A stretch of DNA of 64,000 nucleotides from a virus (lineage: Duplodnaviria; Heunggongvirae; Uroviricota; Caudoviricetes). The notes beneath the pieces were generated by a model. The model was not told where the DNA came from, did no database searches, and was given only the letters and a program-made list of their open reading frames with translations. Position 1 is the stretch's first letter, and each line of letters begins with the position of its first letter. The stretch is from positions 263,353 through 327,352 of IMG/VR virus record IMGVR_UViG_3300042549_004104; one strand, given 5' to 3'. Shown one piece after another: positions 5,016 to 61,525 of the stretch. The position numbers and the translations under genes were made by a program.

Positions 5016-5050
5016 TGTCAAAACAAAACACTCACAACGGAGGGTTATCT

Positions 5051-7236: not shown

Positions 7237-7315
7237 ATAAAGATGACCGGCCTTATGGGCTCATCCCGGTATATAAATTCTGCGTCCTATGCTATAATTA
7301 ACATAGGAGAAAATA

Positions 7316-7879: not shown

Positions 7880-8112
7880 GTCCTGAACAACGAATCAAAG
7901 CTGCCGAAGAATGGGCTCAACTAAGAGTAGAGGCCGCAGAGCGTGAGCGTGATGAGGCATTGGGCTTAGTTAGTGCGGCACACTTAGAATTGATACATAG
8001 CATCAAGTATGGATTCAATCCTGGTACTGCACATAGCACACTAATTAGTGTGGGTAGATTAAGCCCAATGTTACAAGCAAGAATGAAACGAATGTTAGAA
8101 GAAAAAGAATGA
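7876..8112 (+). CDS. hypothetical protein
   Basis: ATGA-coupled ORF. Confidence 0.4.
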   Translation: MSPEQRIKAAEEWAQLRVEAAERERDEALGLVSAAHLELIHSIKYGFNPGTAHSTLISVGRLSPMLQARMKRMLEEKE

Positions 8113-8621: not shown

Positions 8622-8804
8622 GAAAAAATATGGTCAAACCAATTAAATTATGGCGTATATGGGCAAAAGCCTTAGGTGAAAAAACGGGAGCTACAAACAC
8701 AGAAGCTGACCACATCGCTTGCATCCGTACAGCAATAGTGATATCATATATTATAACAAACTGTTTTATTATAGCAGGCGTTATACGACATTGGTAATAA
8801 AATT

Positions 8805-10820: not shown

Positions 10821-12193
10821 ACTATAATAAACTAGTTATATTTGATTTAGATGGGGTATTGATAGAAAGTAAGGAACTGCATTATGATTCCTTGAATTTA
10901 TCATTAAGTAAATTAAGTCCTAAGCATATAATTTCCAGGGAAGAGCATTTAAGTGTATATGATGGATTGACCACTACTAACAAACTTGAATTACTAGCTC
11001 ATAAAAAAGGATTGAATAGGGGACTGTTTGATACTATCTGGCAAGAAAAACAAAAAGCAACAATAGATTTATTATTGCAGACTAGTGAAAATTTATTATT
11101 AAAAAGTATTTTTCGTACCCTATCTGAGCATGGAATAAAAATAGCAGTTGCTAGTAACAGTATAAGAAAATCATTACAAATATCTCTTTTAAAATTAGGT
11201 ATTTTAGAATATATTGATTTCTATGTTTCTAATCAAGATGTGAGTAAAGCTAAACCATTTCCAGAAATGTATTGGAAATGCATGACACAATTAAATGCTA
11301 TCCCAAAAACAACTATAATTATAGAAGATAGTCATATTGGTAGACAGGCTGCATTAGATTCTGGTGCACAATTATTACCTGTTAATACACCTGAAGATGT
11401 GAACGAAGAATTATTAAAACAAATACTGTCAGCATTCGATGGTAAATATATAACAAAAGTACCCTGGAGAAATAATAAAATGAATGTTTTGATTCCAATG
11501 GCAGGTGCAGGTAGTAGATTTGCACAAGCAGGATATTCGTTTCCTAAACCATTAATTGAAGTTAATAGAAAACCGATGATTCAGGTGGTGATAGAAAATT
11601 TGAATATTGAAGCACGTTATATATTCTTAGTTCAAAAAGAACACTATGAAAAATATAATTTAAAACAATTATTAAATATACTCACTCCAAACTGTGAGAT
11701 TGTTCAAGTAGATGGTGTGACAGAAGGCGCCGCAGTAACTACTTTATTAGCAAAAGAATATATTAATAACAATGAGCCATTATTAATAGCAAATTCAGAC
11801 CAATACGTAGAGTGGAATAGTAATGAATGTTTATATAGTTTTACTACCGATCAAATTGACGGTGGAATCGTAACATTTAAATCAACACATCCTAAATGGT
11901 CTTTTGCTAAATTAGGAGAAGATGGGTTTGTTGCTGAAGTAGCAGAAAAAAATCCAATAAGTGATAATGCAACAGTTGGGATATATTATTGGAAACATGG
12001 TAAAGATTATGTCAAGTATGCAGAACAAATGATACAAAACAATACTAGAGTGAATAATGAATTTTATGTTTGCCCAGTGTTCAATGAAGCAATAAAAGAT
12101 AATAAGAAAATCAAAATCAAAGAAATAGAAAAAATGTGGGGCATCGGTACTCCTGAAGATTTATTATATTTTTTGAATAATCACAAAGAATGA
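10817..12193 (+). CDS. bifunctional HAD-superfamily phosphatase / sugar-phosphate nucleotidyltransferase
   Basis: N-terminal HAD motif I VIFDLDGVLIES with a beta-PGM-like layout. The C-terminal half has VLIPMAGAGSRFAQAGYSFPKPLIEV, typical of GT-A-fold NDP-sugar pyrophosphorylases and cytidylyltransferases. Confidence 0.7.
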   Translation: MNYNKLVIFDLDGVLIESKELHYDSLNLSLSKLSPKHIISREEHLSVYDGLTTTNKLELLAHKKGLNRGLFDTIWQEKQKATIDLLLQTSENLLLKSIFRTLSEHGIKIAVASNSIRKSLQISLLKLGILEYIDFYVSNQDVSKAKPFPEMYWKCMTQLNAIPKTTIIIEDSHIGRQAALDSGAQLLPVNTPEDVNEELLKQILSAFDGKYITKVPWRNNKMNVLIPMAGAGSRFAQAGYSFPKPLIEVNRKPMIQVVIENLNIEARYIFLVQKEHYEKYNLKQLLNILTPNCEIVQVDGVTEGAAVTTLLAKEYINNNEPLLIANSDQYVEWNSNECLYSFTTDQIDGGIVTFKSTHPKWSFAKLGEDGFVAEVAEKNPISDNATVGIYYWKHGKDYVKYAEQMIQNNTRVNNEFYVCPVFNEAIKDNKKIKIKEIEKMWGIGTPEDLLYFLNNHKE

Positions 12194-12660
12194 AATTAAT
12201 AGCACATAGGGGACTGGTAAAAGGTCCTGACAAAATATTAGAAAACACTCCTAAGCAAATTGAGTTCGCAATAAAGGAAGGATTTGACTGTGAGGTTGAT
12301 ATATGGTCTATCGATAATGTTTATTATTTAGGTCATGACGATCCTGAATATAGAATAGATAAAGATTTTTTATCCAATCCTCATTTATGGTTACATGCTA
12401 AAAACATAGAAGCACTGGACAAATTATCATTGACTAGCTTTAATTTTTTCTGGCACCAAAATGACGATTACACATTAACTAGTCATAGATATATTTGGAC
12501 ATATCCAGGTAAATCAATGTCACGACATAGTATTATGGTTATGCCAGAATGGCAAAATAGTTCTTTTAGTAACTTATATGACCAAAATTGCTATGGTATT
12601 TGTAGTGATTACGTGTATAATATAAGAGAACAAATGAGAACAAATGAGAACATACGATAA
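12190..12660 (+). CDS. glycerophosphodiester phosphodiesterase (GDPD)-like protein, short form
   Basis: N-terminal IAHRGL..PENT...EFAIKEGFDCEVDIW....LGHDD matches the GDPD HR(G)...E.D...HD signature. At 156 aa it is truncated relative to canonical GDPD. Confidence 0.5.
   Translation: MKLIAHRGLVKGPDKILENTPKQIEFAIKEGFDCEVDIWSIDNVYYLGHDDPEYRIDKDFLSNPHLWLHAKNIEALDKLSLTSFNFFWHQNDDYTLTSHRYIWTYPGKSMSRHSIMVMPEWQNSSFSNLYDQNCYGICSDYVYNIREQMRTNENIR
12622..12651. repeat. short tandem repeat gagaacaaat x2 followed by gagaacatac at a gene junction
   Basis: Read directly in the sequence. It duplicates the ATGAGAACA start context of the next gene. Confidence 0.6.
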
Positions 12661-14005
12661 ACGAATTGGCTTCTTAGTAAGCTATCAAACACTTATACCC
12701 CACGGTGGTATCGGTCAATTCACTAAGAGTTTTATTGAACTAATGGATCAGCATAACATAAAAGTTGATATCATTACTGACAAGGAATTAAATCCTGAGA
12801 ATCAAGACTTCATCAACGAGCTAGGTCTAGGTAAGTTTCAACCACCTACAGTTATTACCCCTGAGAAGTCTCTACCATACACCACACATAGCAACATCTT
12901 TATGTATGGTGATACTTTTAACTATGAGCGTATGGCTAACTTCCGTAATAGTATTATTAAGGCACTTGAAAATAATTTGTATGATGCACTCATTTGTAAT
13001 ACATACGAAACAGTGCAGGTTGCGAGTACAATGGGGTTAGAAGATTGCATCCAAATCATTGCATATACTCATTTAGAAAGTCAAATCTTTAAGGATACAA
13101 AGAATCCTTTCTTAAACAATACCAATGTAATGATGCGTCAGCAACTTACTACACCAGGTATATCTGTTGGAACACAAAGCAAATACAATTGGCTTAACCT
13201 AGATGAATCATCTTATCATTTACCTATCCCAATTACTGAACGAGGATTACTAGAAGAACATCACAACCCACGTGAAGGCGTATTGTTTGTTGGTCGCTGG
13301 GAAGAAGGTAAGAATCCAGAATTGTTTTGTGATTTGATTGAACAAACAAAACTCCCAGCTAAAGTAATGACTAGTGCAAATGGTGCTAAGAAATTCGAAG
13401 GACGATTAAAGAAGATTGGGGTACCCTATGAAATCAAAGTGGGTATCATTGGTCAAGAAAAGGTAAACTTTATCACAAGTGCTAGAGTTGCATTCAATCC
13501 TAGCACAGTAGAGAGTTATGGTATGGCATTCTATGAGCAAACAACTCAATTACCAACATTCTGTTTAGAGAATCAACGCTGGACTAATAACTTTAAAGGA
13601 CAATTCTTTTTTGAAACTAATAAAAAGAACATGGCAGTAGATGTTAAGGGTGCATACGATACATTCTCAACTGCAAAAGAATGGTACAGTCATGGGTCAC
13701 TACTACACACTATACAATTAGAAAAAAATGTATTTCATAAATGGAATGAATGTTTTAATGAGTTTAAACCAAAACAATCTAATAGCAACACTGCTAAGAT
13801 TTTAGAAAACACTACAGTCAAACACAGTGATTACATCAAAGATTTGAATCGCAGTTTAATTTGTATTGATGATATCCGTAGCGTCTTGACCAATAAACAC
13901 AAGTATCGTGTAATCTATACAGACAACGAAACTTATCTGACTAAGGATCCAAGTTACGAACCAATAGAAGAGGCAATAGGTATAAACCTATTTGATTTTG
14001 CATGA
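12644..14005 (+). CDS. GT-B-fold glycosyltransferase (GT4-like)
   Basis: The LFVGRWEEGKNPELF block resembles the GT4 donor-binding region. 453 aa. Confidence 0.5.
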   Translation: MRTYDKRIGFLVSYQTLIPHGGIGQFTKSFIELMDQHNIKVDIITDKELNPENQDFINELGLGKFQPPTVITPEKSLPYTTHSNIFMYGDTFNYERMANFRNSIIKALENNLYDALICNTYETVQVASTMGLEDCIQIIAYTHLESQIFKDTKNPFLNNTNVMMRQQLTTPGISVGTQSKYNWLNLDESSYHLPIPITERGLLEEHHNPREGVLFVGRWEEGKNPELFCDLIEQTKLPAKVMTSANGAKKFEGRLKKIGVPYEIKVGIIGQEKVNFITSARVAFNPSTVESYGMAFYEQTTQLPTFCLENQRWTNNFKGQFFFETNKKNMAVDVKGAYDTFSTAKEWYSHGSLLHTIQLEKNVFHKWNECFNEFKPKQSNSNTAKILENTTVKHSDYIKDLNRSLICIDDIRSVLTNKHKYRVIYTDNETYLTKDPSYEPIEEAIGINLFDFA

Positions 14006-14826
14006 AGAAAATTTTAATCACAGGTAACTCAGGCTACATCGGCAGTCATTTAAGTAAGATGTTGAATGACGAATACGAAGTCTATGGATTAGACAAAGTA
14101 GGTCCTCAATTCAAAGTTAAGAAACATTATAATCTTGACATTAAAAGCCAGCTTAAAGTCAATGAAGAATTTGATTGTATCATTCATTTAGCCGCACTAG
14201 TCAATGTAGGCGAGAGTGAACTACAGCCTACAGACTACTACATGACTAATTTGTTTGGGACATTGAATATCCTACAACATATTAAAACAAAGAACTTTAT
14301 ATTTGCTAGTACTGGTGCAGCCGAAAAGTGTGAAAGTGCTTATGGTGTTAGTAAACGGGCAACAGAAGATTGTGTAAGAGAATTCTGTCAAGTAAACAAA
14401 GTTCCATTTACTACATTTAGATTTTACAACGTAATTGGCAGTGATGGATTCAAACCTACCAATCCTGATGGCTTGATGTATAATATAATGAGAGCTCCTA
14501 AACTAGGATATTTTAATATCTTTGGTAACGATTATGCAACTAAAGACGGTACTTGCGTTAGAGATTATGTACATGTTAATGAAATTTGTAACAGTATCAA
14601 GTTAGCGATTGAAACACCTAGTAATAGTTTAGAGAACTTAGGTCATGGGGTAGGAAATACTGTTAAAGAAATGGTCGAATTGTTCAAACAGGTTAACCAA
14701 ACTGATTTTGAAATACGATATACTAACCGAAGAGAAGGTGATATTGAATACAGTGTGCTTAATAATCCAAGTTCATATATGAGAAAAGTATACACTATCG
14801 AGGATTTGCTAAAAGTTGACAATTAA
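14002..14826 (+). CDS. NAD-dependent epimerase/dehydratase (SDR family, UDP-sugar 4-epimerase-like)
   Basis: N-terminal ILITGNSGYIGSHL Rossmann GxxGxxG. YxxxK-type region (AYGVSKRA). ATGA-coupled. Confidence 0.8.
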   Translation: MKKILITGNSGYIGSHLSKMLNDEYEVYGLDKVGPQFKVKKHYNLDIKSQLKVNEEFDCIIHLAALVNVGESELQPTDYYMTNLFGTLNILQHIKTKNFIFASTGAAEKCESAYGVSKRATEDCVREFCQVNKVPFTTFRFYNVIGSDGFKPTNPDGLMYNIMRAPKLGYFNIFGNDYATKDGTCVRDYVHVNEICNSIKLAIETPSNSLENLGHGVGNTVKEMVELFKQVNQTDFEIRYTNRREGDIEYSVLNNPSSYMRKVYTIEDLLKVDN

Positions 14827-14850
14827 TCGTATTACTGTTACACTTAAGCC

Positions 14851-15870
14851 ATGACTAATCAAAACATTAAACGTATTGGCTTTGCTTGCAAGTGGGCAGA
14901 GATTAACAAAAAAGGTGAAATAGTCAGTACTCAGGGACTGAATACTGGCGGCACTACTATGGCATGGGCCAAACGCAATAAGCGTTCTACAGTGGAGGAA
15001 AAAATTATTGATGTTGCTAAAACTAATATCAATAATACTCATGCACTGATTAAGAAAGTTGCAGAATTACCCCCTGAACTACGTATGTTGCGATTAACTA
15101 GTGACATGTTGTCATTCTACACACATGAGGACTACTCATACTTTTGGCAAGATACTAATACACAAGATAGTCTAGCACGTTGGTTTGCACCCTTAGGTGA
15201 GACTGCACGTAAGCATGATATCCGACTAAGTTTTCATCCCGATCAATTTGTTGTATTAGCAAGCGACCGTGACGAGGTAGTAAATAAGAGTATAACTGAA
15301 TTTGAATATCACTGTGACATGGTGCGTTGGTTAGGCTATGGCAAAACATTTCAAGACTTCAAAGTTAACGTACACATTAGTGGCCGTAAAGGCCCTCAAG
15401 GCATCAGGGATGTGTATGGTAGGTTATCACCTGAAGCACGAAACACACTTACATTAGAAAACGAGGAATATACACATGGAGTCATTGACTGCCTTTCATT
15501 ATCTGATCTTGTCCCAACTGTTCTTGACATTCATCACCATTGGATTAGGGAGGGCGAATATATTAGCCCCGATTCGGAGATTGTTAACCGTGTTGTTGAT
15601 AGTTGGAGGAATGTCCGTTCTACTTTACATTATTCCGTCAGTCGGGAAGATGTACTTGGAGAACATGACCGATCTGTCGCACCCAATCATGGTGCGTTGA
15701 TTGAATCAGGACACAGTAAACAAAAATTACGTGCCCATTCAGATTACTATTGGAATGATGCAGTGAACGATTGGGCATTGACATTCCTTGATAAATTTGA
15801 TATAATGTGCGAAAGCAAAGCTAAGAACTTAGCCAGCTTTAAATTATACGAGAGAGTAAAAAATGTTTGA
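14851..15870 (+). CDS. uvdE: UV DNA damage endonuclease (UvdE/UVDE family)
   Basis: Blocks RLSFHPDQFVVLAS, TLENEEYTH, LDIHHHW and HSDYYW match UvdE TIM-barrel motifs (RTSFHPNQF, TLENDDKTYT, FDFHHF, HADYV). Confidence 0.8.
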   Translation: MTNQNIKRIGFACKWAEINKKGEIVSTQGLNTGGTTMAWAKRNKRSTVEEKIIDVAKTNINNTHALIKKVAELPPELRMLRLTSDMLSFYTHEDYSYFWQDTNTQDSLARWFAPLGETARKHDIRLSFHPDQFVVLASDRDEVVNKSITEFEYHCDMVRWLGYGKTFQDFKVNVHISGRKGPQGIRDVYGRLSPEARNTLTLENEEYTHGVIDCLSLSDLVPTVLDIHHHWIREGEYISPDSEIVNRVVDSWRNVRSTLHYSVSREDVLGEHDRSVAPNHGALIESGHSKQKLRAHSDYYWNDAVNDWALTFLDKFDIMCESKAKNLASFKLYERVKNV

Positions 15871-16276
15871 CAAATTAAAGAACTTATTCAAGAAAACAGA
15901 AAAGCCTGTTGAATCTAAGAAGCCAACTAAAGCAAAAACTAAGGCTCCAACTAAAGAATTAAGTCTTAAAGAAAAAGCAACACAAGCCGGGGAACCCTAC
16001 ATCAATATTTTAAGTTTAGATATTGATCCCAAAGATATCAACAGCGGTGCATTTGATTTAGACTTTAATGAAATTTTTGTAGCAAGATTAGTCAAAGCTG
16101 GTTACATGATGAGTAAGGATGACAAGGATACTGATATCGTAGATAGATGGTTCCAGCAAGTTTGTAGAAATGTAGTACTTGAGATGTATGAGCAAGTACA
16201 AGCGGATCCCATGAACCGTGACATTCGCCCTATCCAATCACGTGACCTTGGCAATGGACGTACAGAGGTGAGTTAA
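15863..16276 (+). CDS. hypothetical protein with a Lys-rich N-terminus
   Basis: ORF overlapping the uvdE stop. Confidence 0.45.
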   Translation: MFDKLKNLFKKTEKPVESKKPTKAKTKAPTKELSLKEKATQAGEPYINILSLDIDPKDINSGAFDLDFNEIFVARLVKAGYMMSKDDKDTDIVDRWFQQVCRNVVLEMYEQVQADPMNRDIRPIQSRDLGNGRTEVS

Positions 16277-17640
16277 TGATTGGATGGCCAGTACCTCCTA
16301 CTAATTTAAAATATTCTAAATGGTATGACTCGCTAATTAACAAGGCTTTACAAAGAAGCCTACCATTAACTATGTATACAGAACAACACCATATTGTTCC
16401 TAGAAGTTTTGGTGGCAGTGATGACATATCTAATCTAGTTAAACTTACAGCAAGAGAACATTATGTAGCGCATTTATTATTATGGAAGATACGCTTTCCT
16501 AGTGTATACGGTAGTAAAATGTCTTTTGCTTTTGGAACATTTGTTAACAGATTTAAACAAGAATATCATTCCTCATATAAGATAACAAGTAGGATTTATG
16601 CACAATTTAAAAAAGAATATTCTCTGTTGATGAGTGAGCGAATGTCAGGAGAAGGTAATCACTTCTTTGGCAAGACACATTCAGAAGAAACAAGACGAAT
16701 CATAGGTGAAAAGAGCAAGCAAAAGATTTTTAAAAAGGGACCAGAGAATCCAAATTGGGGTAAAAAACAAAATCTTTCTGATGAACAACGTAAAAAGAGA
16801 AGTGAAGGATCCAAAACTAGATGGGGGAACGATGAGTTCCGCAAAAAGATATTAACATCAAGAAAGCTATATTGGGAATCCGAAGAAGGTAGAGTAAGAG
16901 CTAACATATGGGCTGAAGGGCTTCGAGGAGTTAAACTTGATCCAGAACGTGTTGAAAAATCTGCAAGTAAAAAACGAGGGAAAAAAGGCACTGAAATATT
17001 TTCAGAACAAGCATTAGCTAATATACGTGAGGCTAACAAACATAGGATATATTCTGAAGAAGGTTTGGCAAAAATACGAGAGAGTTCAAGAAAAGTTGGA
17101 CAACGCCTCAAGTCAGAAGAACATAAGAAAAGAATTTCAGAATCAAATAAAGGCAAACACAATAATAAAGGTGAAAAAAATCCTATGTTTGGTAAGAAAC
17201 ATTCACCTGAAACAATAGCTAAAATAAAGGAAACAAAAAGAATATCTGCATTGAAAAATGCAAAGCCTAAATTTGTAGGTCCTTTGAAACCCAAAAACAT
17301 GATTACTTTTAGAGGAGTAAATTATGCTAGTATCAAAAAAGCAAGTTCGCATTTCGGTATACCAGTTGGAAAAATAAAAACACAGATAAAACATTGGGGG
17401 GAGAATCCAGACGCAGAAACAATCGCAAAGATTGATTCCGGAAAACTGAAACCACCTATGACAGCCTGGAATAAAGGTAGTATTGGATTGCAAGTTAGTT
17501 GGAATAAAGGTATGGAGGCACCTAAGTTTACATGTGAACATTGTGGTAAGATAGTAGGTGGAAAAACCAATTATATTAGGTATCACCATGATAATTGTAA
17601 ACTAAAAGTATTCACTTTATTGTCAACAAAAAAAGGTTGA
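16276..17640 (+). CDS. HNH homing endonuclease with repeated NUMOD3-like DNA-binding modules
   Basis: HHIVPRSFGGSDDISNLVKLTAREHYVAH HNH motif. At least 6 repeats of the GxxNPxxGKKHSxETxxKI type follow, as in T4 Mob and I-Hmu-type homing endonucleases. Confidence 0.8.
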   Translation: MIGWPVPPTNLKYSKWYDSLINKALQRSLPLTMYTEQHHIVPRSFGGSDDISNLVKLTAREHYVAHLLLWKIRFPSVYGSKMSFAFGTFVNRFKQEYHSSYKITSRIYAQFKKEYSLLMSERMSGEGNHFFGKTHSEETRRIIGEKSKQKIFKKGPENPNWGKKQNLSDEQRKKRSEGSKTRWGNDEFRKKILTSRKLYWESEEGRVRANIWAEGLRGVKLDPERVEKSASKKRGKKGTEIFSEQALANIREANKHRIYSEEGLAKIRESSRKVGQRLKSEEHKKRISESNKGKHNNKGEKNPMFGKKHSPETIAKIKETKRISALKNAKPKFVGPLKPKNMITFRGVNYASIKKASSHFGIPVGKIKTQIKHWGENPDAETIAKIDSGKLKPPMTAWNKGSIGLQVSWNKGMEAPKFTCEHCGKIVGGKTNYIRYHHDNCKLKVFTLLSTKKG

Positions 17641-31111: not shown

Positions 31112-31414
31112 ATGAAAATTTCAATTGTGTTATTAGCATTATTGTGTAGTTTATCTGCCAATGTACAGGCGCAGGATGCAGTGTCAGGCAAGATCAAATA
31201 TACGAGTTGCAGTGCATGTCACGGTGCTCAAGGTCAAGGCGGAGTAGGTCCAAAACTTCAAGGCCAAAAAGCCGAAGCAATTGTGAAAAAACTCACTGCA
31301 TACAAAAACAAACAAAAAGTTGGACCACAGAGTGAATTGATGTGGGGCATGGCCGGTGCACTATCGTCTGATGATATTAAGAATATTGCCGCATACACAG
31401 CCACGCTCAAATAA
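31112..31414 (+). CDS. class I c-type cytochrome (c552/c553-like), secreted
   Basis: Signal peptide MKISIVLLALLCSLSANVQA. A single CSACHG heme-binding CxxCH motif. Downstream Met-containing LMWGMAG is a candidate sixth ligand. 100 aa. Confidence 0.75.
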   Translation: MKISIVLLALLCSLSANVQAQDAVSGKIKYTSCSACHGAQGQGGVGPKLQGQKAEAIVKKLTAYKNKQKVGPQSELMWGMAGALSSDDIKNIAAYTATLK

Positions 31415-31609: not shown

Positions 31610-32404
31610 ATGAAACGTATTTTTACTCTCTCTATTATCGCCGTAGCAATTTTGGCTACTGGTTGTACACGTATTGAAACCGGCGAGGTTGGTGTGCGTA
31701 TTGGCTTTGACCGACAAATCAAGTCCGGTGAATTATTGCCCGGTTCATTCAATCAAACTATGATTGGTGATGTATTAACATTCCCCATCAAGGACGTCAA
31801 TGTGGTGCTTGAAAACATGACACCTGTTGCTAAAGACAATTCAACAATGAAAGACTTTGATGCTGTGGTGGTTTACAACATCAACCCACAACAAGTAAGT
31901 GAGTTGTACGCAACCAAGAACAAGAGTTTCCACGCTGATTTCAAGGGAGACACTTATGTGATGTACAACTACATTGTACAAAATGCTCGAAATGCTATTT
32001 ACAAATCAGCCCGCAAGTATGAAGCATTGGACATGGCAGACAATCGCACTGACATGGAAAACTTTATCAAAGAAGAAATTGCTCGAAATCTTGGTGAAGA
32101 AAAACTAGATGGATCAATCACAATCAGTCAAGTGATGATTCGTAATGTGTTGCCCAGTGACACAGTAGTTGAATCTGCAAACGCATTGGTTCGTAGCAAA
32201 AACGAATTGAAACAGAAAGAAGTTGAAGTTAAAACTGCCGAAGCAGAAAGTCGCAGAATGGCAGCATTGGCTAATAACTCGGGTGCTAGTATTGCATTCA
32301 TGCAAGCACAAGCTATGTTGAATATCTCAGAAGGTATCAAGAACGGTCAAGTACAGACTATTGTAGTTCCTAGCAACTTCAATGCATTAATGATGCCTAA
32401 ATAA
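31610..32404 (+). CDS. lipoprotein (lipobox LATGC), possibly SPFH/band-7-like
   Basis: AAGGAAA SD. Signal peptide with a lipobox. The fold assignment is weak. Confidence 0.55.
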   Translation: MKRIFTLSIIAVAILATGCTRIETGEVGVRIGFDRQIKSGELLPGSFNQTMIGDVLTFPIKDVNVVLENMTPVAKDNSTMKDFDAVVVYNINPQQVSELYATKNKSFHADFKGDTYVMYNYIVQNARNAIYKSARKYEALDMADNRTDMENFIKEEIARNLGEEKLDGSITISQVMIRNVLPSDTVVESANALVRSKNELKQKEVEVKTAEAESRRMAALANNSGASIAFMQAQAMLNISEGIKNGQVQTIVVPSNFNALMMPK

Positions 32405-33794: not shown

Positions 33795-33826
33795 TACTTT
33801 GACACTTAAACCGAATAAATACACAG

Positions 33827-35449: not shown

Positions 35450-35527
35450 ATTGTTACCCAAAATCTCTTGACCAATAAGAGATTCTCTGTTATACTATCA
35501 TCATTGTTTAACTTATTAAAGGTTTTT

Positions 35528-36148
35528 ATGAAACACACACTCACTTTTGTCGCAGTCGTTGCTATTCTAGCAGGTTGCTCCTCAACTAAGACCGCAGTAA
35601 ACCCTGATGAACCTATCAGAAATCAAAAGTTGTCCACAACATTTACAGAGGATAATGTAAAGATTACAACAAATTGTGCATGGTATAAGCCATTTAAATC
35701 TGAATGCGATATAGTTTCTATTGAAGCTACTGCAACTGCATGGACTAATGGTGCAAGTATTGTACAAGTTAATGAAGGTCGTAAGGTTGCTAAAAGCCAA
35801 GCACTAGCAAACGTTAGTCATTTTATCAATACCCAAATCTCAAGTTCACGGATTACAAATGTTATAGCCAAACACGTTGAAAAGGCTAAAGATGAGATGA
35901 AAAATGGTTCAGAAGAATCACAGATGACTGATAAAGAAGCCAAAACAAATAGTACATCGGTTCGTGAAAATTCAAATGATACTGCACGTACAGTAACTAA
36001 TACTATCCGTGAAAATTCTGAATCTATCTTGCGTGGATTTAGAACTGTCAAGGAAGAAAAAGTAGGACAACAAGAAGTTTCAGTTACCGTTCGTTGGGAC
36101 CGCGAAAGTGAGCGAGTTGCTAATGAATTGCGTAAAAGCATGAATTAA
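35528..36148 (+). CDS. lipoprotein (lipobox LAGC)
   Basis: Start taken at MKHTLTFVAVVAILAGCSS with an upstream AAAGG SD. Confidence 0.55.
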   Translation: MKHTLTFVAVVAILAGCSSTKTAVNPDEPIRNQKLSTTFTEDNVKITTNCAWYKPFKSECDIVSIEATATAWTNGASIVQVNEGRKVAKSQALANVSHFINTQISSSRITNVIAKHVEKAKDEMKNGSEESQMTDKEAKTNSTSVRENSNDTARTVTNTIRENSESILRGFRTVKEEKVGQQEVSVTVRWDRESERVANELRKSMN

Positions 36149-36153
36149 TAATC

Positions 36154-37134
36154 ATGCGTTTAATTTTAGCATTGGCAGTTACCCTGTTAACTGCCTGTGC
36201 TACTACGGTAGCACAAAATAAAACTATCCCAATCAGCGTGATAGGTGAAGGAACTACTATCAACGATGCAAAAAACAATGGCTTTCAAAAAGCCATTGAG
36301 CAAGAAGTTGGTGTAGTTCTTTTATCACAAAAACAAATCAAAAATGACAAGCTAAGTAAGGACGAAATTGTATTACATAGTGCAGGTTATATTGACCATT
36401 ATACAGTACTTGATACAGAAAAGGTAAACAACACTTATTACCTAACAATGGATGTTTATGTCAAATCCAGTTCTATCGCAGAAAGAGTGTTAGGGGTATC
36501 AAATAAATCCAAATCTGTCAATGGTGAAAAAATACACGACCAATTTGAAGTATATTCAAAGTACAGAAAAACCGGTGATGAATTGATGAAGGCAGTGTTG
36601 GAAGAATATCCGCATTCTGCATTTATTGTTAAAAATCAAAGAATTGATAGTTCAGGAGTTGTGACAGCAATAGATAAAAATAGAAATCCTGTGTTTATTG
36701 TACCCTTTGAAGTAAGTTATAATTATAACTTTCTAAAATCGTTTAATGAGGCTTTAAAAGCTACAAGCGATAAAGAAATAAAAGGTCATGTCCAACAACG
36801 TAAAATTAGGGTGATTAGTAAAAAACCCGGTAGTGTTTGGGGTAGTACTGATTCATATTTTATCAACGATATACAACGTGATGAATTGATTAAGCAACAT
36901 TTTGTTGGTAAATTATATGTAAAATTAATTGCATTAGACGGAGCAGGGAAGAGATTATTTCATACATGCCAAACCTTTGCCGGGGAAGAAGATACAATTT
37001 ATTTGAACAAAGAATTTACAATTAATGGTAATGACGTTTTTGAAAATGAATTGGCATTTACATTTAAGAAAAATCACCCCATAATGAAAGAAGTCAGTTC
37101 TTATGTATTGACTGTTCATAAAGGAAAATGTTAG
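36154..37134 (+). CDS. lipoprotein (lipobox LTAC)
   Basis: Starts MRLILALAVTLLTACATT. Confidence 0.55.
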   Translation: MRLILALAVTLLTACATTVAQNKTIPISVIGEGTTINDAKNNGFQKAIEQEVGVVLLSQKQIKNDKLSKDEIVLHSAGYIDHYTVLDTEKVNNTYYLTMDVYVKSSSIAERVLGVSNKSKSVNGEKIHDQFEVYSKYRKTGDELMKAVLEEYPHSAFIVKNQRIDSSGVVTAIDKNRNPVFIVPFEVSYNYNFLKSFNEALKATSDKEIKGHVQQRKIRVISKKPGSVWGSTDSYFINDIQRDELIKQHFVGKLYVKLIALDGAGKRLFHTCQTFAGEEDTIYLNKEFTINGNDVFENELAFTFKKNHPIMKEVSSYVLTVHKGKC

Positions 37135-37184
37135 AATTTATAATGCTGTACAAACAATGATAAGTAATAGTATTAAAATCAAAC

Positions 37185-38387
37185 ATGTCCGAAGAAAATA
37201 AACCAATAAATTATTGTAGCTTTTGCAACAACCACAAAGATGCTGTTAAAAAACTAGTAGTCGGTGGTTCTGTTGCTATATGTAGTGATTGCGTTGAATT
37301 ATGCCAAGAACTCATAACTGATGGAGTTGTTGAACCTACAACAAAAGAATCCAATCCAGATTACGATCCAGAGTCCATAAAAGAATACCTAGATCAACAT
37401 GTCATTGGACAAGATGATGCTAAAAAGGTTCTCAGCGTAGCCATTGCTAATCACTATAAACGGATAAATAATCCTCCTAAAGATTTAGAAATACAAAAAG
37501 GCAATGTACTTATTGTAGGTCCGACAGGTAGTGGCAAAACCTTACTTGCAAAGACTGCGGCTAAATATCTTAAAGTGCCCTTCGTTGTAGCTGATGCAAC
37601 TAGTTTAACCGAAGCAGGTTATGTAGGTGATGATGTTGAATCAATGATTAACATGTTGCTCAATGCGGCTAACGGTGATAAAGACTTAGCCGAGCGTGGT
37701 ATCGTATTTGTTGATGAAATTGACAAAATTGCCCGAAAGAGTGAGAGTGTTAGTATAACACGTGATGTATCAGGTGAGGGAGTACAACAAGCATTACTCA
37801 AATTAGTTGAAGGTACAGTATGTCGCATAGCAGGAAGCGGTGGCAGAAAACATCCTGGTGCCGACATGCTTGAAATAAACACAAAAAACATATTATTCAT
37901 TGCAGGCGGGGCTTTTGTTGGATTGAAGGAAGTAATAGGAAATAGATTAAATGGAACAAGTATCGGGTTTCAAGCGGCTATCAAAGATAATAAAAAAGAG
38001 GGTGAACTAAGCAAAGTTACCCCTGATGATTTAACAAAGTACGGAATGATTCCAGAATTCATAGGTAGATTTACTACTACAGTTAGTATTGATGAATTAG
38101 ATAAAGAACAGTTGATTCATATCTTAACCGATGTTAAAAATAATTATATCAGCCAATACAAATATTTGCTTAAATTAGATAATATCGAACTTACATTTAC
38201 CCAAGATGCATTGGAACAAATGGCAGAAAATTCATTAACTCTGAAAACAGGGGCTCGTGGATTGCATACAGAAATTGAGCGAGTATTAATGCCGCATATG
38301 TTCCTCACCAAATCATACCGTCAAAATAACATAAAATTGCTAAATATTAACAAGGAGCAGATTTTAAATCCAAAATCTTTGTTATGA
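37185..38387 (+). CDS. clpX: ClpX AAA+ unfoldase
   Basis: N-terminal C4 zinc-binding domain (CSFCNN...CSDCVELC). Walker A GPTGSGKT. GYVG pore-1 loop. Walker B IVFVDEIDKI. IGF ClpP-docking loop (SIGFQAA). Confidence 0.93.
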   Translation: MSEENKPINYCSFCNNHKDAVKKLVVGGSVAICSDCVELCQELITDGVVEPTTKESNPDYDPESIKEYLDQHVIGQDDAKKVLSVAIANHYKRINNPPKDLEIQKGNVLIVGPTGSGKTLLAKTAAKYLKVPFVVADATSLTEAGYVGDDVESMINMLLNAANGDKDLAERGIVFVDEIDKIARKSESVSITRDVSGEGVQQALLKLVEGTVCRIAGSGGRKHPGADMLEINTKNILFIAGGAFVGLKEVIGNRLNGTSIGFQAAIKDNKKEGELSKVTPDDLTKYGMIPEFIGRFTTTVSIDELDKEQLIHILTDVKNNYISQYKYLLKLDNIELTFTQDALEQMAENSLTLKTGARGLHTEIERVLMPHMFLTKSYRQNNIKLLNINKEQILNPKSLL

Positions 38388-38596
38388 GTAAGAAAATTCC
38401 AGTATTTGACAACAATGTAGAGAAAGCATTACGTAAACTTAAAAAAAAGTTAACCGAATCCGGTTTACTACAAGAGGTCAGAGAACGTCAGGAATTTGTC
38501 AAACCAACCATAAAAAAGAAGATTGCCAAAAGTCAAGCAAAAAGACGTTGGAAGAAACACTTGCGTGACCAACAATTGCCCCCTAAAATGTACTAA
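38384..38596 (+). CDS. rpsU: ribosomal protein bS21
   Basis: 70 aa, basic. FDNNVEKALRKLKKKLTESGLLQEVRERQEFVKPTIKKKIAKSQAKRRW aligns with E. coli S21 ([44 protein letters not shown]). ATGA-coupled to clpX. Confidence 0.85.
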   Translation: MSKKIPVFDNNVEKALRKLKKKLTESGLLQEVRERQEFVKPTIKKKIAKSQAKRRWKKHLRDQQLPPKMY

Positions 38597-38703
38597 CCCA
38601 ATTATATACAAATATTTTACGTAATCATATAAAATAGATATATACATGTAGATGCTGTAAAGGTCTACAGTTTTAAAAATCTTGCTTAACAAAGGAGAAC
38701 ATT

Positions 38704-40593
38704 ATGAGCAAAGTCATCGGTATCGATTTGGGTACCACAAATTCATGCGTAGCCGTTATTGAGAACGGAATCCCCAAAGTAATTGAAAACAGTGAAGGTG
38801 CTAGAACAACACCAAGTATTGTCGCCTATACAGACGAAATTCTTGTTGGTGCTAGTGCTAAACGTCAAGCAGTTACTAATCCAAAAAACACAATTTATGC
38901 AGCCAAGCGTTTGATCGGTCGTAAATTTACCGAAGAAGCTGTACAAAAAGATATCAACTTGATGCCTTACAAAATTGTTGCTAATGACAACGGTGATGCA
39001 TGGGTTCAAGTAAATGAAGATAAACTAGCACCTCCACAAATCAGTGCAGAAGTCTTACGCAAAATGAAAAAGACTGCGGAAGATTATCTCGGTGAAGAAG
39101 TTACACAAGCAGTTATTACTGTTCCCGCATATTTCAATGATAGTCAAAGACAAGCAACCAAAGACGCAGGACGTATTGCCGGTCTAGAAGTATTGCGTAT
39201 CATTAACGAACCTACAGCAGCCGCATTGGCGTATGGTGTAGATAAACAAGACAAGCGTGACCGTAAAGTTGCAGTGTACGACTTAGGTGGTGGTACATTT
39301 GATGTATCTATCATTGAATTGGCAGATGTTGATGGTGACAAACAAATTGAAGTATTGTCCACAAACGGAGACACATTCTTAGGTGGTGAAGACTTTGACC
39401 AACGAATCATGGATTTCTTGGTTGACGAATTCAAAAAGGATCAAGGCGTTGATTTGACTAAAGATGTGTTAGCATTGCAACGACTTAAAGAAGCCGCAGA
39501 AAAGGCTAAGATTGAGTTGAGTAGTTCAGTACAAACAGATGTTAACTTACCGTACATCACCGCAGATGCAAATGGCCCTAAACATTTGAACGTTAAGTTG
39601 ACACGTAGCAAACTAGAACAACTAGTTGAAGAACTTATCAAACGTAGTATCGAGCCTTGCAAGACAGCAATGAAAGATGCCGGTGTAAGTGCTAGTGACA
39701 TTGACGAAATTATCTTAGTTGGCGGCATGACACGTATGCCTAAGGTACAAGAAGAAGTTGAAAAACTATTCGGCAAAGCACCACGCAAAGATGTTAACCC
39801 TGATGAAGCAGTAGCAGTTGGTGCCGCAGTTCAAGGCGCAGTACTAAGTGGTGAGCGCAAAGACGTATTGTTGCTTGACGTTACTCCATTGAGTTTGGGT
39901 ATTGAAACAATGGGCGGTGTAATGAGCAAATTGATTGCTAAGAACACAACAATTCCAACTAAACAAAGTCAAACATTCAGTACAGCCGAAGATAATCAAC
40001 AAGCAGTTACAATCAAAGTGTTCCAAGGTGAGCGTGAGATTGCAAAATACAATAAAGGTCTAGGTGAATTTAACTTAGATGGTATTGCACCAGCACCCCG
40101 CGGAGTACCTCAGATTGAAGTTACTTTTGATATTGACGCAAATGGTATCATGCATATCAGTGCTAAAGACAAAGGTACGGGCAAAGAAAACAAAATCACT
40201 ATTAAGAGTAATAGTGGTTTGAGCGAAAGTGAAATTCAGCAAATGGTTAAAGATGCTGAGGACAATGCAGAAACAGACAAGAAAGCACGTGAATTGATTG
40301 AAGCACGTAATGGAGCAGAATCAACATTGAATGGCTTCCGTAATGACTTTGAAAAGTACAAAGACCAAGTTACAGAAGAAGAACGTACTAAAGCAGAAGA
40401 AGCATTAAAAGCAGTTGAATATGCGATTCTAGGTGATGACGCAACAGTTATCCAAGAATCTATTCCTAAACTATATGAAGCAATTGGTCCTATCACTAAG
40501 GTTAAACACGATGCTGAAGAAGCAGAGAAGAAACAATCACAAGAAGCAGATGTGGTTGATGCAGAAGTTAAAGAGTCCGCAGAGACTGTTTAA
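38704..40593 (+). CDS. dnaK: DnaK (Hsp70) chaperone
   Basis: [22 protein letters not shown] and [11 protein letters not shown] signatures. Full-length 629 aa with the C-terminal substrate-binding domain. Confidence 0.97.
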
Positions 40594-40662: not shown

Positions 40663-41106
40663 ATGACAAGAGAATTAACGTTACGTTCAATAGATATTCC
40701 ATCTATCCATAGATTCGGAATAGGATTTGATTCAATGCTTGATGAACTACTGAGAACAACAAGTCAACCACAAGGTAACTATCCACCGCACAATGTAATT
40801 AAGACAGGAGATGAAACTGTATTAATTGAGGTTGCAATTGCAGGATTTGATGAAGGTGAAATTTCTATCACAGTAGAAAACAATACATTATTGATTTCCG
40901 GTCAACAAAATAAAAATGATCCAATCAATTATGAATATCTACATCGTGGATTGAGTAGCAGAAACTTTATCCAAAAGTTCAAATTGGCTGAACATGTTGA
41001 AGTTATTGACGCATCTATTAAAAACGGAGTTCTTTCTGTCTTACTAGAGCGTAAAATGCCAGAAGATAAGAAACCCAAGAACATTGCAATAAACTACAAT
41101 AAATAA
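40663..41106 (+). CDS. ibpA: small heat-shock protein IbpA/Hsp20 (alpha-crystallin domain)
   Basis: Collinear with E. coli IbpA: GNYPPHNV, AIAGFDEGEISI, NFIQKFKLAEHV, KKPKNIAIN. Confidence 0.92.
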   Translation: MTRELTLRSIDIPSIHRFGIGFDSMLDELLRTTSQPQGNYPPHNVIKTGDETVLIEVAIAGFDEGEISITVENNTLLISGQQNKNDPINYEYLHRGLSSRNFIQKFKLAEHVEVIDASIKNGVLSVLLERKMPEDKKPKNIAINYNK

Positions 41107-41168: not shown

Positions 41169-41477
41169 ATGGCACAAACTGAAACAAGAATTAGAATTAG
41201 ACCCAATTTGAAAGTACCTGAACCCCCAATGTTCAAGGTAATTTATATGAACGATAATCACACTTCAATAGAGTTTGTCGTTAAAAGTTTGATTGACCAT
41301 TTTAATTATACAGAGGATACTGCATCATCTATTACTACAGGAATTCATGAATCCGGTAGTGCAGTTGTTGCTGTGTTGCCCTTTGAAATTGCAGAACAAA
41401 AGGGAATTGAAGTTACACTTGATGCCAGAAACCAAGGGTATCCACTTCAAGTTAAAATAGAAGCCGACGCAACTTAA
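41169..41477 (+). CDS. clpS: ClpS N-degron adaptor protein
   Basis: EPPMFKVIYMNDNHTSIEFVVKSL aligns with E. coli ClpS [24 protein letters not shown]. About 100 aa. Confidence 0.85.
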   Translation: MAQTETRIRIRPNLKVPEPPMFKVIYMNDNHTSIEFVVKSLIDHFNYTEDTASSITTGIHESGSAVVAVLPFEIAEQKGIEVTLDARNQGYPLQVKIEADAT

Positions 41478-42536: not shown

Positions 42537-43028
42537 ATGAACCTATCTAATTATTCACTCATAGATATGATGGATCTTCCCTTGCCCCCGATCCATGTTC
42601 AGAAAAAATTAGCATATAGGCCAACTGCAAAAGACGTAAAACATGTTTATAAACAACTAAACGAGTACGTATTCGAAAATCAATTAGTAATACCGTCAAT
42701 ACACCTAGTACCTAGATGTAGAAAATACTGGGGTATGTGTATGGGTGAAATAGAAATTTATAAGACCGGAAGCTATTGTGAGATTAAACTTATGGATAAA
42801 TGGTTTTGCCCTCAATGGTTTGTGACCACATTAGCGCATGAAATGGTTCACCAATATCAATGGGACATATTAGGCCCCGAACGTGAAAAGAACGGAAAAG
42901 ATTGGTTAATGAGTCACGGACCATCTTTCTTTCGATTTCGTGAAAATTTAGAACAGTATGGAATAAGTCTCAAAACTGCACATAGTCAAAGACGCTGGTT
43001 TAAACATCAAAATCTGTTCAGGGCATAA
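42537..43028 (+). CDS. HExxH zinc metallopeptidase-like protein (SprT-like)
   Basis: HEMVHQYQWD motif with size and placement typical of SprT/WLM-like proteins. Confidence 0.45.
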   Translation: MNLSNYSLIDMMDLPLPPIHVQKKLAYRPTAKDVKHVYKQLNEYVFENQLVIPSIHLVPRCRKYWGMCMGEIEIYKTGSYCEIKLMDKWFCPQWFVTTLAHEMVHQYQWDILGPEREKNGKDWLMSHGPSFFRFRENLEQYGISLKTAHSQRRWFKHQNLFRA

Positions 43029-44632: not shown

Positions 44633-45220
44633 ATGAGTTTAGTCCCAATCGTTATCGAACAAACAAGCAAAGGTGAGCGTAGTTATGATATCTACAGCCG
44701 CTTATTGCGTGACCGTGTAATTTTGCTTGAGGGCGAAGTACATGACCAAATGGCAAATCTTATCGTTGCCCAATTACTATTTTTAGAATCAGAAGGTGAT
44801 AAAGATATTTCAATGTATATCAATAGTCCTGGTGGTAGTGTAACTGCTGGCATGGCAATCTATGATGCAATGCAATTTGTCAAACCAGAGATTCACACAA
44901 TCGTTATGGGTCAAGCATGTAGTATGGGTAGTTTGCTTGCACAAGCAGGCTCATCTGGCAAACGTTTTATGTTGCCAAATGCACGGCACATGATTCATCA
45001 GCCTTCAGGTGGCGCACGTGGACAAGCAACTGATATGCTGATTCAGGTCAATGAAATTCTTGAAATGAAAAAGAACCTCACAGAAATCTATGTTAAGCAT
45101 AATTCAAAAGGTAAAACTTTTGACGTACTTCATGCTGATATGGAACGAGATAATTTTATGAGTAGCCAACAAGCACTTGATTATGGTCTTGTAGACGAAA
45201 TAGTTACAAAACGCGGTTGA
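44633..45220 (+). CDS. clpP: ClpP serine protease
   Basis: Nearly collinear with E. coli ClpP: [48 protein letters not shown] (catalytic Ser), HQP (His). Confidence 0.96.
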
Positions 45221-58193: not shown

Positions 58194-58583
58194 ATGACTA
58201 TGCATCTTGAAGGCCCTTGGCTCAGTCTCGGCGGCAAACGCAAAGGTAAAGTTAAGTTTCGCAATGCTGAGGAAGCTAAACGTGCCCGTGAACTAGAACA
58301 ATCATGGAAAGAATTGTGTAAACGTCAGGGCGTTGAGGCAGAAGAAAAGAAACGTATTAAGGCACTCAAAGCTCCTACACTACAATATTCATTGTCTGCA
58401 CCTCCAGGTCGTGAGACACAAAAAATCAAAAGTTTAACTACACCCGGCGGTTCTACTGCTCCAGTACATAAAGTGTACACTGGTGACAAAATCATTGGTA
58501 TCGCTACCATGCATAAAAGTAATGCTGTGCCTGTGTTTAGCGATGAGCAAGCAGTAGAAATTTCAAGGATGCGCCGTGGCTAA
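58194..58583 (+). CDS. hypothetical basic protein
   Basis: ORF downstream of the promoter. Confidence 0.45.
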   Translation: MTMHLEGPWLSLGGKRKGKVKFRNAEEAKRARELEQSWKELCKRQGVEAEEKKRIKALKAPTLQYSLSAPPGRETQKIKSLTTPGGSTAPVHKVYTGDKIIGIATMHKSNAVPVFSDEQAVEISRMRRG

Positions 58584-58878
58584 AATTAATCGTTGCACTT
58601 ATTATTTTGAACTGCTGAAAAACCGTAGTGATGGTATCAATTCTTGGAAAGCCGGTGCATACTCAGCCGCAGGTTATATGGGTGCATGGTACGGCGGGCA
58701 AGGTAGATTGTCTATGAACAGTGATAGAATATGGTGTCAAGGTCCTAAAGGTGGTGTTAAGATTGTAAAAGATAGAATAACCTATCCAGGAGGCATGTAT
58801 GGATATGTTACACACAATGAAAAAGCAATGAAGGAATTCATGTGGATCAAGTTAAAAGCAAAGGAGTTGCGATTTTAA
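58576..58878 (+). CDS. hypothetical protein
   Basis: Coupled ORF. Confidence 0.45.
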   Translation: MAKINRCTYYFELLKNRSDGINSWKAGAYSAAGYMGAWYGGQGRLSMNSDRIWCQGPKGGVKIVKDRITYPGGMYGYVTHNEKAMKEFMWIKLKAKELRF

Positions 58879-59094
58879 ATGGCAAAAGAAGAGGGCATTA
58901 AGATGGACGGCAAGGTAATAGATGTATTACCAAATGCCGTTTTTAAAGTACAAATGGAAGCTGGACCTACAATAACAGGATACATCAGCGGCCGCATGCG
59001 TAAGCATGATATTAAAATATTATTGGGTGACACTGTAGAAGTAGAATTTAGTCCATATGACCTAACCAAAGGTCGCATTACTCGCCGCAGATAA
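58879..59094 (+). CDS. infA: translation initiation factor IF-1
   Basis: 71 aa. Collinear with E. coli IF1: [67 protein letters not shown] versus [67 protein letters not shown]. Confidence 0.92.
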
Positions 59095-60973: not shown

Positions 60974-61525
60974 ATGTACGATATTGTAGAGAAAATCAAC
61001 GAATCCCGAACAAAAAAAATAGAGATAGTTAATCTGTCCTACGATCTTTCCGACCTCAATCCAGTACTTAGCAAGAAAACACTAGACTATCACTATGGTG
61101 ATTTAGCCCATGGATACACTACCCGATACAACAAGGGTGAAGGCGACAAAGATTTCAACTATGCAGGCGCTTTTCTGCACAACATTTACTTTCCACAGTT
61201 TCGCAAGATACAAGAAGATAACACTCCTAATGGTCCTGTACTAGGAATCATCAAGCGCAAATACGATTGGTGGAGAGACTTTAAAGAACAATTCAAAATA
61301 GAAGCCATGAAGATACAGGGCAGTGGTTGGATTTATATGAGTTATGACGGTGAGATAAAGACTATTGCTAACCACGAGGTTCGTGATGATATTCTTATTC
61401 TTGTAGACTGGTGGGAACATGCCTGGGCCTTAGACTACCAAGCAGATAAAAAAAGTTACCTAGAAAACACTTGGAAGATAATGAACTGGAGCCACATTAA
61501 CACTAGGTGGGGGAAGAATTTATGA
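60974..61525 (+). CDS. sod: Fe/Mn superoxide dismutase family protein
   Basis: DYHYGDLAHGYTTRYN aligns with EYHYGKHHQTYVTNLN. AGAFLHNIYF aligns with NHTFYW. QGSGWIYM aligns with FGSGWTWL. LILVDWWEHAWALDYQADKKSYLENTWKIMNW aligns with [32 protein letters not shown]. The metal ligands H, H, D and H are all present. Confidence 0.85.
   Translation: MYDIVEKINESRTKKIEIVNLSYDLSDLNPVLSKKTLDYHYGDLAHGYTTRYNKGEGDKDFNYAGAFLHNIYFPQFRKIQEDNTPNGPVLGIIKRKYDWWRDFKEQFKIEAMKIQGSGWIYMSYDGEIKTIANHEVRDDILILVDWWEHAWALDYQADKKSYLENTWKIMNWSHINTRWGKNL

Follow-up and report, generated by a model that had tools for sequence, protein, structure and literature searches.

Ribosomal protein bS21 is the commonest ribosomal protein encoded by viruses; it is found preferentially in aquatic phages, and its viral copies evolve under purifying selection (PMC6375957). 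Al-Shayeb et al. reported IF1, IF3, and S21 in huge phages (PMC7162821), and the standard hypothesis in the literature holds that S21 biases initiation toward phage mRNAs (PMC6375957, PMC7162821, PMC9723584). An earlier note on the stretch of DNA discussed here had mentioned viral S21 genes from aquatic phages, and the published record bears this out (PMC6375957, PMC9723584). That stretch, which we call the window, comprises 64,000 nucleotides (positions 263,353 to 327,352 of IMG/VR virus record IMGVR_UViG_3300042549_004104, a member of the Caudoviricetes), and our subject is the small gene for bS21 that it carries next to clpX. We put a probability of about 0.6 on the reading that this gene specifies a functional phage bS21 homolog that would replace host bS21 on a beta/gammaproteobacterial 30S subunit and so retune initiation, in a lineage of ~350-360-kb aquatic jumbo phages. 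The features that this reading draws on first are listed here, with all coordinates given as positions in the window.

37185-38387, + strand: clpX, 400 amino acids, with an N-terminal C4 zinc finger (PF06689, 46 bits) and an AAA+ domain (AAA_2, PF07724, 110 bits)
38384-38387, + strand: ATGA overlap between the S21 start codon (ATG) and the clpX stop codon (TGA), read from the sequence
38384-38596, + strand: phage bS21 gene, ATG start, 70 amino acids, isoelectric point (pI) 10.6, C-terminus ...HLRDQQLPPKMY (PF01165, TIGR00030, PHROG 21469)
58879-59094, + strand: phage IF-1 gene (infA), TIGR00008 at 102.4 bits (cut-off 61.15) and PF01176 at 77.6 bits

The protein is a phage-encoded bS21 homolog, and the earlier note had identified it correctly. 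The open reading frame (ORF) does encode the 70-residue basic protein that was claimed; with 22 lysines and arginines against 7 aspartates and glutamates, and a pI of 10.6, it is small and strongly basic like bS21. The proposed homology held up in a profile search, in which PF01165 (Ribosomal_S21) matched at 58.4 bits (E 5.8e-16, cut-off 27) over positions 2-53 of the 55 in the profile. Similarly, the S21p equivalog TIGR00030 matched at 47.6 bits (cut-off 28.95, profile positions 2-57 of 58), PHROG 21469, "ribosomal protein S21," matched with E 1.1e-12, and the best sequence matches among solved structures are the bS21 chains of bacterial ribosomes. An AlphaFold (AF2) model, with a predicted local distance difference test score (pLDDT) of 83, places helices at residues 12-26, 28-37, and 41-64. 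When it was searched against the PDB with Foldseek, the top four matches were all S21 chains, yet their E values (0.11-1.1) were non-significant, which is no surprise in an extended protein whose folding takes place on rRNA. A minus-strand ORF at 38468-38692 is unsupported, and was set aside as a shadow of the S21 gene and the adjoining intergenic region.

For comparison, IMG/VR was scanned, which yielded 176 S21 relatives, and 80 loci were kept. The gene is under purifying selection, with a median pairwise ratio of nonsynonymous to synonymous substitution (dN/dS) of 0.18 over 131 usable pairs. No relative has an interrupted ORF, and S21 persists in loci with ClpX divergence down to 48% identity. 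Between the window and its relative L002, 17 of the 213 nucleotides of the gene differ, all of them synonymously, leaving an identical protein at a dS of 0.57; the neighboring proteins of the same two loci are 45-97% identical.

The S21 gene belongs to a phage-specific clade and is not a recently captured host gene. In a neighbor-joining tree the clpX-linked phage S21 proteins group together, apart from bacterial sequences, although a tree of 70 residues is weak evidence taken alone, and KALRK.KKK and RW are invariant across the clade. Some clade members have 8-9 extra residues at the N-terminus, an extension that the window protein does not have. A pattern scan of 185,579 species genomes gave four weak partial matches only (37-54%) and no near-identical bacterial donor; the scan needs shared 8-residue words and missed Neisseria at 45%, and it therefore rules out near-identical donors only. 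With these results in hand, it is scarcely credible that S21 is a decaying or neutral passenger, captured from a host along with clpX and dnaK. Its neighbors (clpX, dnaK, clpS, clpP, and hsp20) are indeed of cellular type, but a passenger is already contradicted by frames that stay intact in every relative, by a dN/dS of 0.18 and a protein unchanged at dS 0.57, by the retention of S21 while ClpX diverged to 48%, and by the lack of a close bacterial copy in the genomes scanned.

In its core (residues 9-52) the protein resembles an alphaproteobacterial bS21 and the S21 of two phages, pelagiphage HTVC008M and methylophage Melnitz (48-50% identity), more than it does betaproteobacterial bS21 from Neisseria, Burkholderia, and Mycetohabitans (36%). 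In the tail (residues 53-70), by contrast, identity to Neisseria rises to 67%, and none of the non-betaproteobacterial bacteria compared exceeds 28%. The tail reads ...LRDQQLPPKMY, the last eight residues, QQLPPKMY, being identical to those of Neisseria bS21, and in a tblastn search of PLSDB only the betaproteobacterial sequences among the matches listed align through residue 70. Within the clade, 34 of 36 proteins end in LP..[Y/F/W]. The N-terminal helix differs, with VEKALRKLKKK in the phage as against FEVAMRRFKR in the host type.

What such a tail does has been described for Escherichia coli, where the C-terminal RLY of bS21 contacts the 30S head by packing into h37 and stacking against A1167 (Watson et al. 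2020, PMC7550191). Betaproteobacteria use KLY, and some huge-phage S21 proteins carry KLY-like motifs that fit their hosts (PMC7550191). The ending ...LPPKMY has the C-terminal succession of basic residue, hydrophobic residue, and Tyr that marks the (K/R)LY subtype, and the tail is the betaproteobacterial form of it. Because the tail matches this type, we infer that the host has a beta/gammaproteobacterial-type ribosome, to which the tail would anchor S21.

A host-type tail can also be read as a sign of supply and not of selectivity. S21, IF-1, DnaK, and Clp would then top up labile host factors after the shut-off of host transcription, keeping bulk translation going with no preference for phage mRNAs. 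We regard this as unlikely, and still as an explanation to be taken seriously. The cassette in which S21 lies is made up of ordinary housekeeping functions, bS21 is loosely bound and exchangeable (PMC6375957), the tail is a mimic of the host type, not a departure from it, and many genes in the window use a canonical AAGGAG Shine-Dalgarno (SD) sequence, as a proteobacterial host would. However, a core with just 36% identity to betaproteobacterial bS21 is poorly explained in this way, the clade-specific invariant residues (KALRK.KKK and RW) exceed the change that a spare part needs, and the clade has long been separated from bacterial sequences.

In ~48 of the 80 loci (L007-L054, with S21 identity of 51-87%) we find a common cassette, ordered as follows: a gene for a 540-residue protein, (two lipoprotein-like genes), clpX, S21, dnaK in some members, hsp20, and clpS, and further on an SprT-like gene, a gene for a 509-residue protein, and clpP. 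The other loci (L056-L086) have a different, 63-residue S21 type and no Clp context. Directly upstream of S21 there is a clpX in ~45 IMG/VR loci, and in every cassette locus the offset from the clpX stop to the S21 start lies between -35 and +25 nucleotides. When the 36 distinct clpX-S21 junctions were compared, 26 were found to overlap or abut, and 13 of the 36 have the ATGA overlap. An SD core is present in only one of the 26 overlapping or abutting junctions; among the 10 gapped ones (1-25 nucleotides), at least five carry a GAGGAG-type SD at the proper distance. Because overlapping and abutting junctions almost all lack an SD while gapped ones regain a GAGGAG SD, these comparative data support translational coupling of S21 to clpX.

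The earlier note had proposed this coupling, which the 36 junctions bear out through their pattern of overlap and SD, and it had placed clpX upstream and dnaK downstream of S21, an order confirmed by profile matches. S21 is tied to the phage clpX both transcriptionally and translationally, at the head of a conserved proteostasis block. An AAGGAG inside the 3' end of clpX (38354-38359) was tried as an SD for S21 and rejected; it stands 24 nucleotides from the ATG and is lost in relatives with a changed codon pair. Scans for sigma-70 promoters and intrinsic terminators around the cassette gave results no better than those for shuffled sequence.

So close a linkage invites an explanation in terms of proteostasis, in which the S21-like protein works with the phage ClpX/ClpP/ClpS or with chaperones. 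It might be an adaptor or a substrate decoy, or it might take part in ribosome remodelling, with ClpXP removing host bS21 or ribosome-bound factors, which are then replaced. S21 comes directly after clpX (overlapping or within 25 nucleotides) in all 36 distinct junctions, and elsewhere it adjoins a ClpS homolog (Vibrio phage 2.275.O) or lies two genes from Hsp20 (HTVC008M); a census that covered 900 phages with S21 counts Hsp20 (n=127) as well as Clp proteases (n=50 and 47) among the common neighbors of the gene (PMC9723584). We nevertheless think this improbable. The full-length match to a ribosomal profile and the retained tail, of the kind that contacts the 30S head, favor a ribosomal site, and in phages gene neighborhood is often a matter of shared expression timing, not of physical interaction. 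We know of no biochemical link between bS21 and ClpX.

The earlier note had paired S21 with a phage IF-1 at 58879-59094, and the identity of that gene is confirmed (TIGR00008, 102.4 bits). IF-1 and S21 lie on the same contig in at least eight IMG/VR contigs, ~20-27 kb apart as in the window, and their pairing is a lineage trait because both genes recur on these contigs at like spacing. The ATG of IF-1 directly follows the TAA of an upstream 100-residue ORF (tttTAAATG; region 58576-59094), with an AAGGAG 12 nucleotides upstream; the arrangement of IF-1 is thus tightly packed too, and possibly coupled.

Under the reading that we prefer, in which phage bS21 takes the place of its host counterpart, S21 would be made together with ClpX during infection; lacking an SD, the gene would depend for its translation on termination-reinitiation at the ATGA. 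The protein would then exchange into the host 30S subunit in place of host bS21, which would lend itself to this as a late-binding, readily exchangeable platform protein beside the anti-Shine-Dalgarno (anti-SD) end of 16S rRNA. By analogy with the E. coli (K/R)LY on h37/A1167, the KMY tail would anchor the protein in the 30S head, and the divergent N-terminal helix, presumably facing the mRNA/anti-SD region, would be a candidate surface for changing mRNA choice. The phage IF-1 would intervene at this step of 30S initiation too. There is a precedent for incorporation in the bS21 of HTVC008M, which enters E. coli 70S ribosomes (PMC6375957).

It is important to set against this the points that count in the other direction. 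Ribosomes with the HTVC008M S21 were ~5% active in vitro (PMC6375957), and because the one phage S21 tested gave so little activity, S21 replacement may, by analogy, inhibit translation instead of redirecting it. In the study of Watson et al., the type of S21 that a phage carries showed no association with phage ribosome-binding sites (PMC7550191). The fold match of the phage S21 is statistically non-significant (E 0.11-1.1), and a purely ribosomal role leaves the tight and conserved linkage to clpX unexplained. In addition, a gammaproteobacterial methanotroph has been suggested, on the basis of DnaK, as the host of a phage group that is probably the same one (PMC7678222). That group is the Lake Baikal viral population VP_1254, which comprises ~17 kb scaffolds with DnaK and S21 (PMC7678222). 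Its host was assigned as Methyloglobulus from the identity of DnaK to a metagenome-assembled genome (MAG) (PMC7678222), an assignment that may be circular if the MAG bin holds phage contigs; the betaproteobacterial tail of S21 is a hint of another host. A host assignment from the DNA similarity of dnaK (Acinetobacter, 70.6%) was judged uninformative.

The earlier note had also suggested looking for a distinctive ribosome-binding context among the phage 5' leaders. Two classes of leader were found, one with an AAGGAG SD and one without an SD but with ATAAATA, with no link so far between either of them and S21. The features concerned are these.

4984, 23241, 24356, 33815, 42525, 43025, 50435, 56977, 59309, and 60960, + strand, and 53461, - strand: ATAAATA sites of the SD-less class
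33815-33821, + strand: ATAAATA 5 nucleotides before the ATG of the 540-residue gene, an example of the SD-less class
37160-37166, + strand: ATAAGTA core of the GATAAGTAAT motif (motif 37160-37169), upstream of clpX, promoter-like

An AAGGAG-type SD core stands upstream of the start in ~35% of ORFs, compared with 15-19% at background positions. In the second class there is no SD, and ATAAATA occurs 3-7 nucleotides before the start codon. Such a placement is seen for 11 of the 26 ATAAATA sites in the window, compared with 0-15% for 20 other arrangements of the same seven letters. ATAAATA is conserved in relatives upstream of the 540-residue, SprT-like, and 509-residue genes, and one gene of this class has virion and baseplate PHROG matches. 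T4 and T4-like cyanophages use the sequence (N/T)ATAAATA as their late promoter (PMC2984593). Several relatives also have ATAAATA a few nucleotides ahead of the hsp20 leader's first stem, a position that would suit a promoter from which transcription begins immediately downstream. Because a late-promoter-like ATAAATA adjoins the ATG, the ATG-adjacent cases would give leaderless or near-leaderless (late) mRNAs, if the promoter reading is right.

The clpX gene has no SD in the window, and 27 of 28 unique clpX leaders are likewise without one. Most related loci (L002-L048) retain the GATAAGTAAT motif in front of clpX, 2-20 nucleotides from the ATG, and it may be a variant promoter class that drives the clpX-S21 pair.

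Ribosomes without bS21 treat leaderless mRNA differently, as bS21 supports the anti-SD (PMC10491246), and, judging from the leader sequences, a link between phage S21 and leaderless mRNAs is conceivable. Taken to its full extent, this would amount to a two-mode translation programme, in which phage S21 and IF-1 turn host ribosomes from SD-led host mRNAs to leaderless late ones. The ATAAATA class, with its virion-like genes and the genes that flank the cassette, would supply transcripts that start at or next to the AUG. The host-like anchor and the divergent mRNA-facing helix could exploit the positioning of the 16S anti-SD tail by bS21, and the coupling to clpX could be there to remove host bS21 or ribosome-bound factors and so make way for the exchange. 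We consider such a programme a long shot.

Downstream of S21 the cassette continues with the following features.

38647-38669, + strand: conserved hairpin between S21 and dnaK, the first stem of the dnaK leader (38647-38703), predicted fold
38681-38697, + strand: CTTGCTT and then an AAGGAG SD before dnaK, a ROSE-like anti-SD/SD pair
38704-40593, + strand: dnaK, 629 amino acids, HSP70, 862 bits
40601-40668, + strand: ROSE-like 5' leader of hsp20, below the Rfam threshold
40663-41106, + strand: hsp20 small heat-shock protein gene, PF00011, 60 bits, conserved in the cassette
41169-41477, + strand: clpS adaptor gene, PF02617, 77.8 bits, conserved in the cassette
44633-45220, + strand: clpP protease subunit gene, PF00574, 259 bits, 6-7 kb downstream of S21 in relatives

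Between 37185 and 45220 the window has a complete phage Clp system (ClpX, ClpS, and ClpP) in one block with DnaK, Hsp20, and an SprT-like metalloprotease (42537-43028). The dnaK gene is present only in some members of the cassette and is missing between S21 and hsp20 in many relatives; the loci compared with the window for its presence were L007, L011, L026, L028-L030, L036-L041, L043, and L045-L051. That dnaK has its own copy of the hsp20-type leader suggests that it was inserted as a gene-plus-leader unit.

In the window and in L002-L050, the leader common to dnaK and hsp20 consists of a stem-loop, an invariant CTTGCTT, AAGGAG, and the ATG. Across 32 dnaK and hsp20 leaders, 9 of the 11 pairs of the stem-loop show compensatory changes, and CTTGCTT and AAGGAG are invariant in all 19 dnaK and 32 hsp20 leaders. 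On the + strand of the window, CTTGCTT stands before a gene start only at dnaK and hsp20. The layout is ROSE-like, with a covarying stem followed by UUGCUU facing AAGGAG. The hsp20 leader has a fold z of -4.3 and covariation in stem 1, and an additional pairing joins its GUCAU to AUGAC at the start codon. Rfam ROSE_3 matches this leader at 21 bits against a gathering threshold of 43 (E 0.25, full model 1-69); at the gathering threshold Rfam gave nothing in the window or in 12 related loci, ROSE (RF02523) included. From sequence and predicted pairing, the dnaK/hsp20 leader may be a phage-borne RNA thermometer, and the hairpin at 38647-38669 may also end the clpX-S21 transcript. Two other identities for CTTGCTT were rejected. 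A T4 MotA box (TGCTTtA, for CTTGCTT(A)) would lie 5-8 nucleotides upstream of the SD and ~20 nucleotides from the ATG, and was rejected because transcription would then start inside the ORF; the same positional objection, a start inside the ORF, applies to a sigma-32 -35 element.

The two ORFs upstream of clpX (35468-36148 and 36154-37134) have lipoprotein-like N-termini (...LAGCSSTK and ...LLTACATT). Neither has a match in Pfam, and their conservation is poor (26-79%). They are perhaps the genes for "curli production" noted in Baikal VP_1254.

The phage origin of the window is sound because of its phage-type gene content and of the homologs that the 540-residue protein has in cultured phages. 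The former includes a NUMOD3/HNH homing endonuclease, an ATP-dependent DNA ligase, a LysM-GH19 endolysin, virion-protein and baseplate-like PHROGs, and FolE/QueD/QueE genes; for the latter, homologs of the N-terminal domain are found in the jumbo and T4-like phages XacN1, RsoM2USA, SCTP-2, and pelagiphage Mosig. The window has 36% G+C, is ~95% coding, and has one predominating strand. Its positions 28384-48596 are identical (0 mismatches) to part of a 359,425-bp Joint Genome Institute (JGI) metagenome contig, from a freshwater-type jumbo phage of ~360 kb, and the exact S21 protein is present on 39 contigs. A DNA comparison with the INPHARED phage collection turned up no close relatives, dnaK alone giving matches (64-71%), and no tRNA genes were found in the window.

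Several other gene sets deserve mention. At 4994-9647 there are GTP cyclohydrolase I, QueD-like, and QueE-like genes together with a 2-oxoglutarate (2OG)-Fe(II) oxygenase gene, a set that makes up a 7-deazaguanine precursor pathway of the kind that serves to modify tRNA or DNA. A sugar-nucleotide set at 10817-15870 comprises a HAD hydrolase-nucleotidyltransferase fusion, a nucleotide-sugar epimerase, and a heptose kinase/adenylyltransferase-like gene. The HNH/NUMOD3 homing endonuclease ORF (16276-17640) overlaps both of its neighbors, a 137-residue ORF and a ResIII helicase-like ORF with a TTG start. A 100-residue c-type cytochrome and an SPFH/Band 7 protein are encoded at 31112-31414 and 31610-32404. 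Finally, a gene for Fe/Mn superoxide dismutase lies at 60974-61525 with ATAAATA in front of it, and such a gene is also found in L091 (7764-8333).

Phage S21, phage IF-1, and Clp/Hsp20 neighbors of S21 are already in the literature. What is added here is an S21-clpX coupling fixed across the lineage, a chimeric similarity with a betaproteobacterial anchor tail, the co-conservation of IF-1, and the two leader classes. For the mechanism of phage bS21, this lineage offers a clean comparative system, with a monophyletic S21 clade (host-type tail, phage-specific helix), a fixed coupling to clpX, and a co-conserved IF-1. SD-led and apparently leaderless genes in the same genomes lead to specific predictions for in vitro translation and cryo-electron microscopy. 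The betaproteobacterial tail is, moreover, a host clue that disagrees with the published DnaK-based assignment for what is probably the same group.

It is worthwhile to place the locus beside the described systems one at a time. HTVC008M (Mizuno et al. 2019, PMC6375957) offers an S21 of the same family in a large, lytic-type aquatic phage, under purifying selection, with Hsp20 two genes downstream of S21 and a core 48% identical to that of the window protein. However, its S21 has no LP.K.Y tail and branches with that of its alphaproteobacterial host (PMC6375957), whereas the window S21 falls in a separate, clpX-linked clade with a betaproteobacterial-type tail.

The Bacteroidetes phages of Chen et al. 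(2022, PMC9723584) are likewise large freshwater phages in which identical S21 proteins occur in otherwise diverged genomes. These authors proposed host mimicry at the ribosome anchor together with a divergent N-terminal helix (PMC9723584), and the window S21 has the same pattern. In those phages S21 lies among terminase, capsid, and portal genes, whereas in the window it lies between clpX and dnaK. By resemblance, their product can be likened to the 63-residue ...KAIYVQQ.KNGL form of L056-L086; the window S21 clusters apart from that form and is not of the Bacteroidetes type, having a proteobacterial tail instead.

The S21 proteins of huge phages (Al-Shayeb et al. 2020, PMC7162821; Watson et al. 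2020, PMC7550191) come from huge or jumbo genomes that also carry IF1 and IF3, and have a KLY-like tail that matches a beta/gammaproteobacterial host range; they differ in that coupling to clpX is not described in PMC7162821 or PMC7550191, and the window protein has no extension at its N-terminus. Among cellular proteins, the betaproteobacterial bS21 of Neisseria gonorrhoeae and Burkholderia shares the 70-residue class and the tail (Neisseria ...RLRSQQLPPKMY, phage ...HLRDQQLPPKMY), but identity over residues 9-52 is 36%, the N-terminal helix is another one, and the context in the window is that of a phage.

Vibrio phage 2.275.O._10N.286.54.E11 (MG592671, 349 kb) is a cultured jumbo phage of similar size. 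It has a run of genes for IF-3, S21 (RpsU3), and a ClpS-like protein, with an Fe/Mn superoxide dismutase nearby, and thus shares with the window S21, ClpS, an initiation factor, and Fe/Mn superoxide dismutase. It differs in that its S21 is ~47% identical, there is no clpX directly upstream, the initiation factor at the locus is IF-3 and not IF-1, and the phage is marine. The presence of Fe/Mn superoxide dismutase near S21 in both hints at a distant kinship in gene content among ~350-kb phages.

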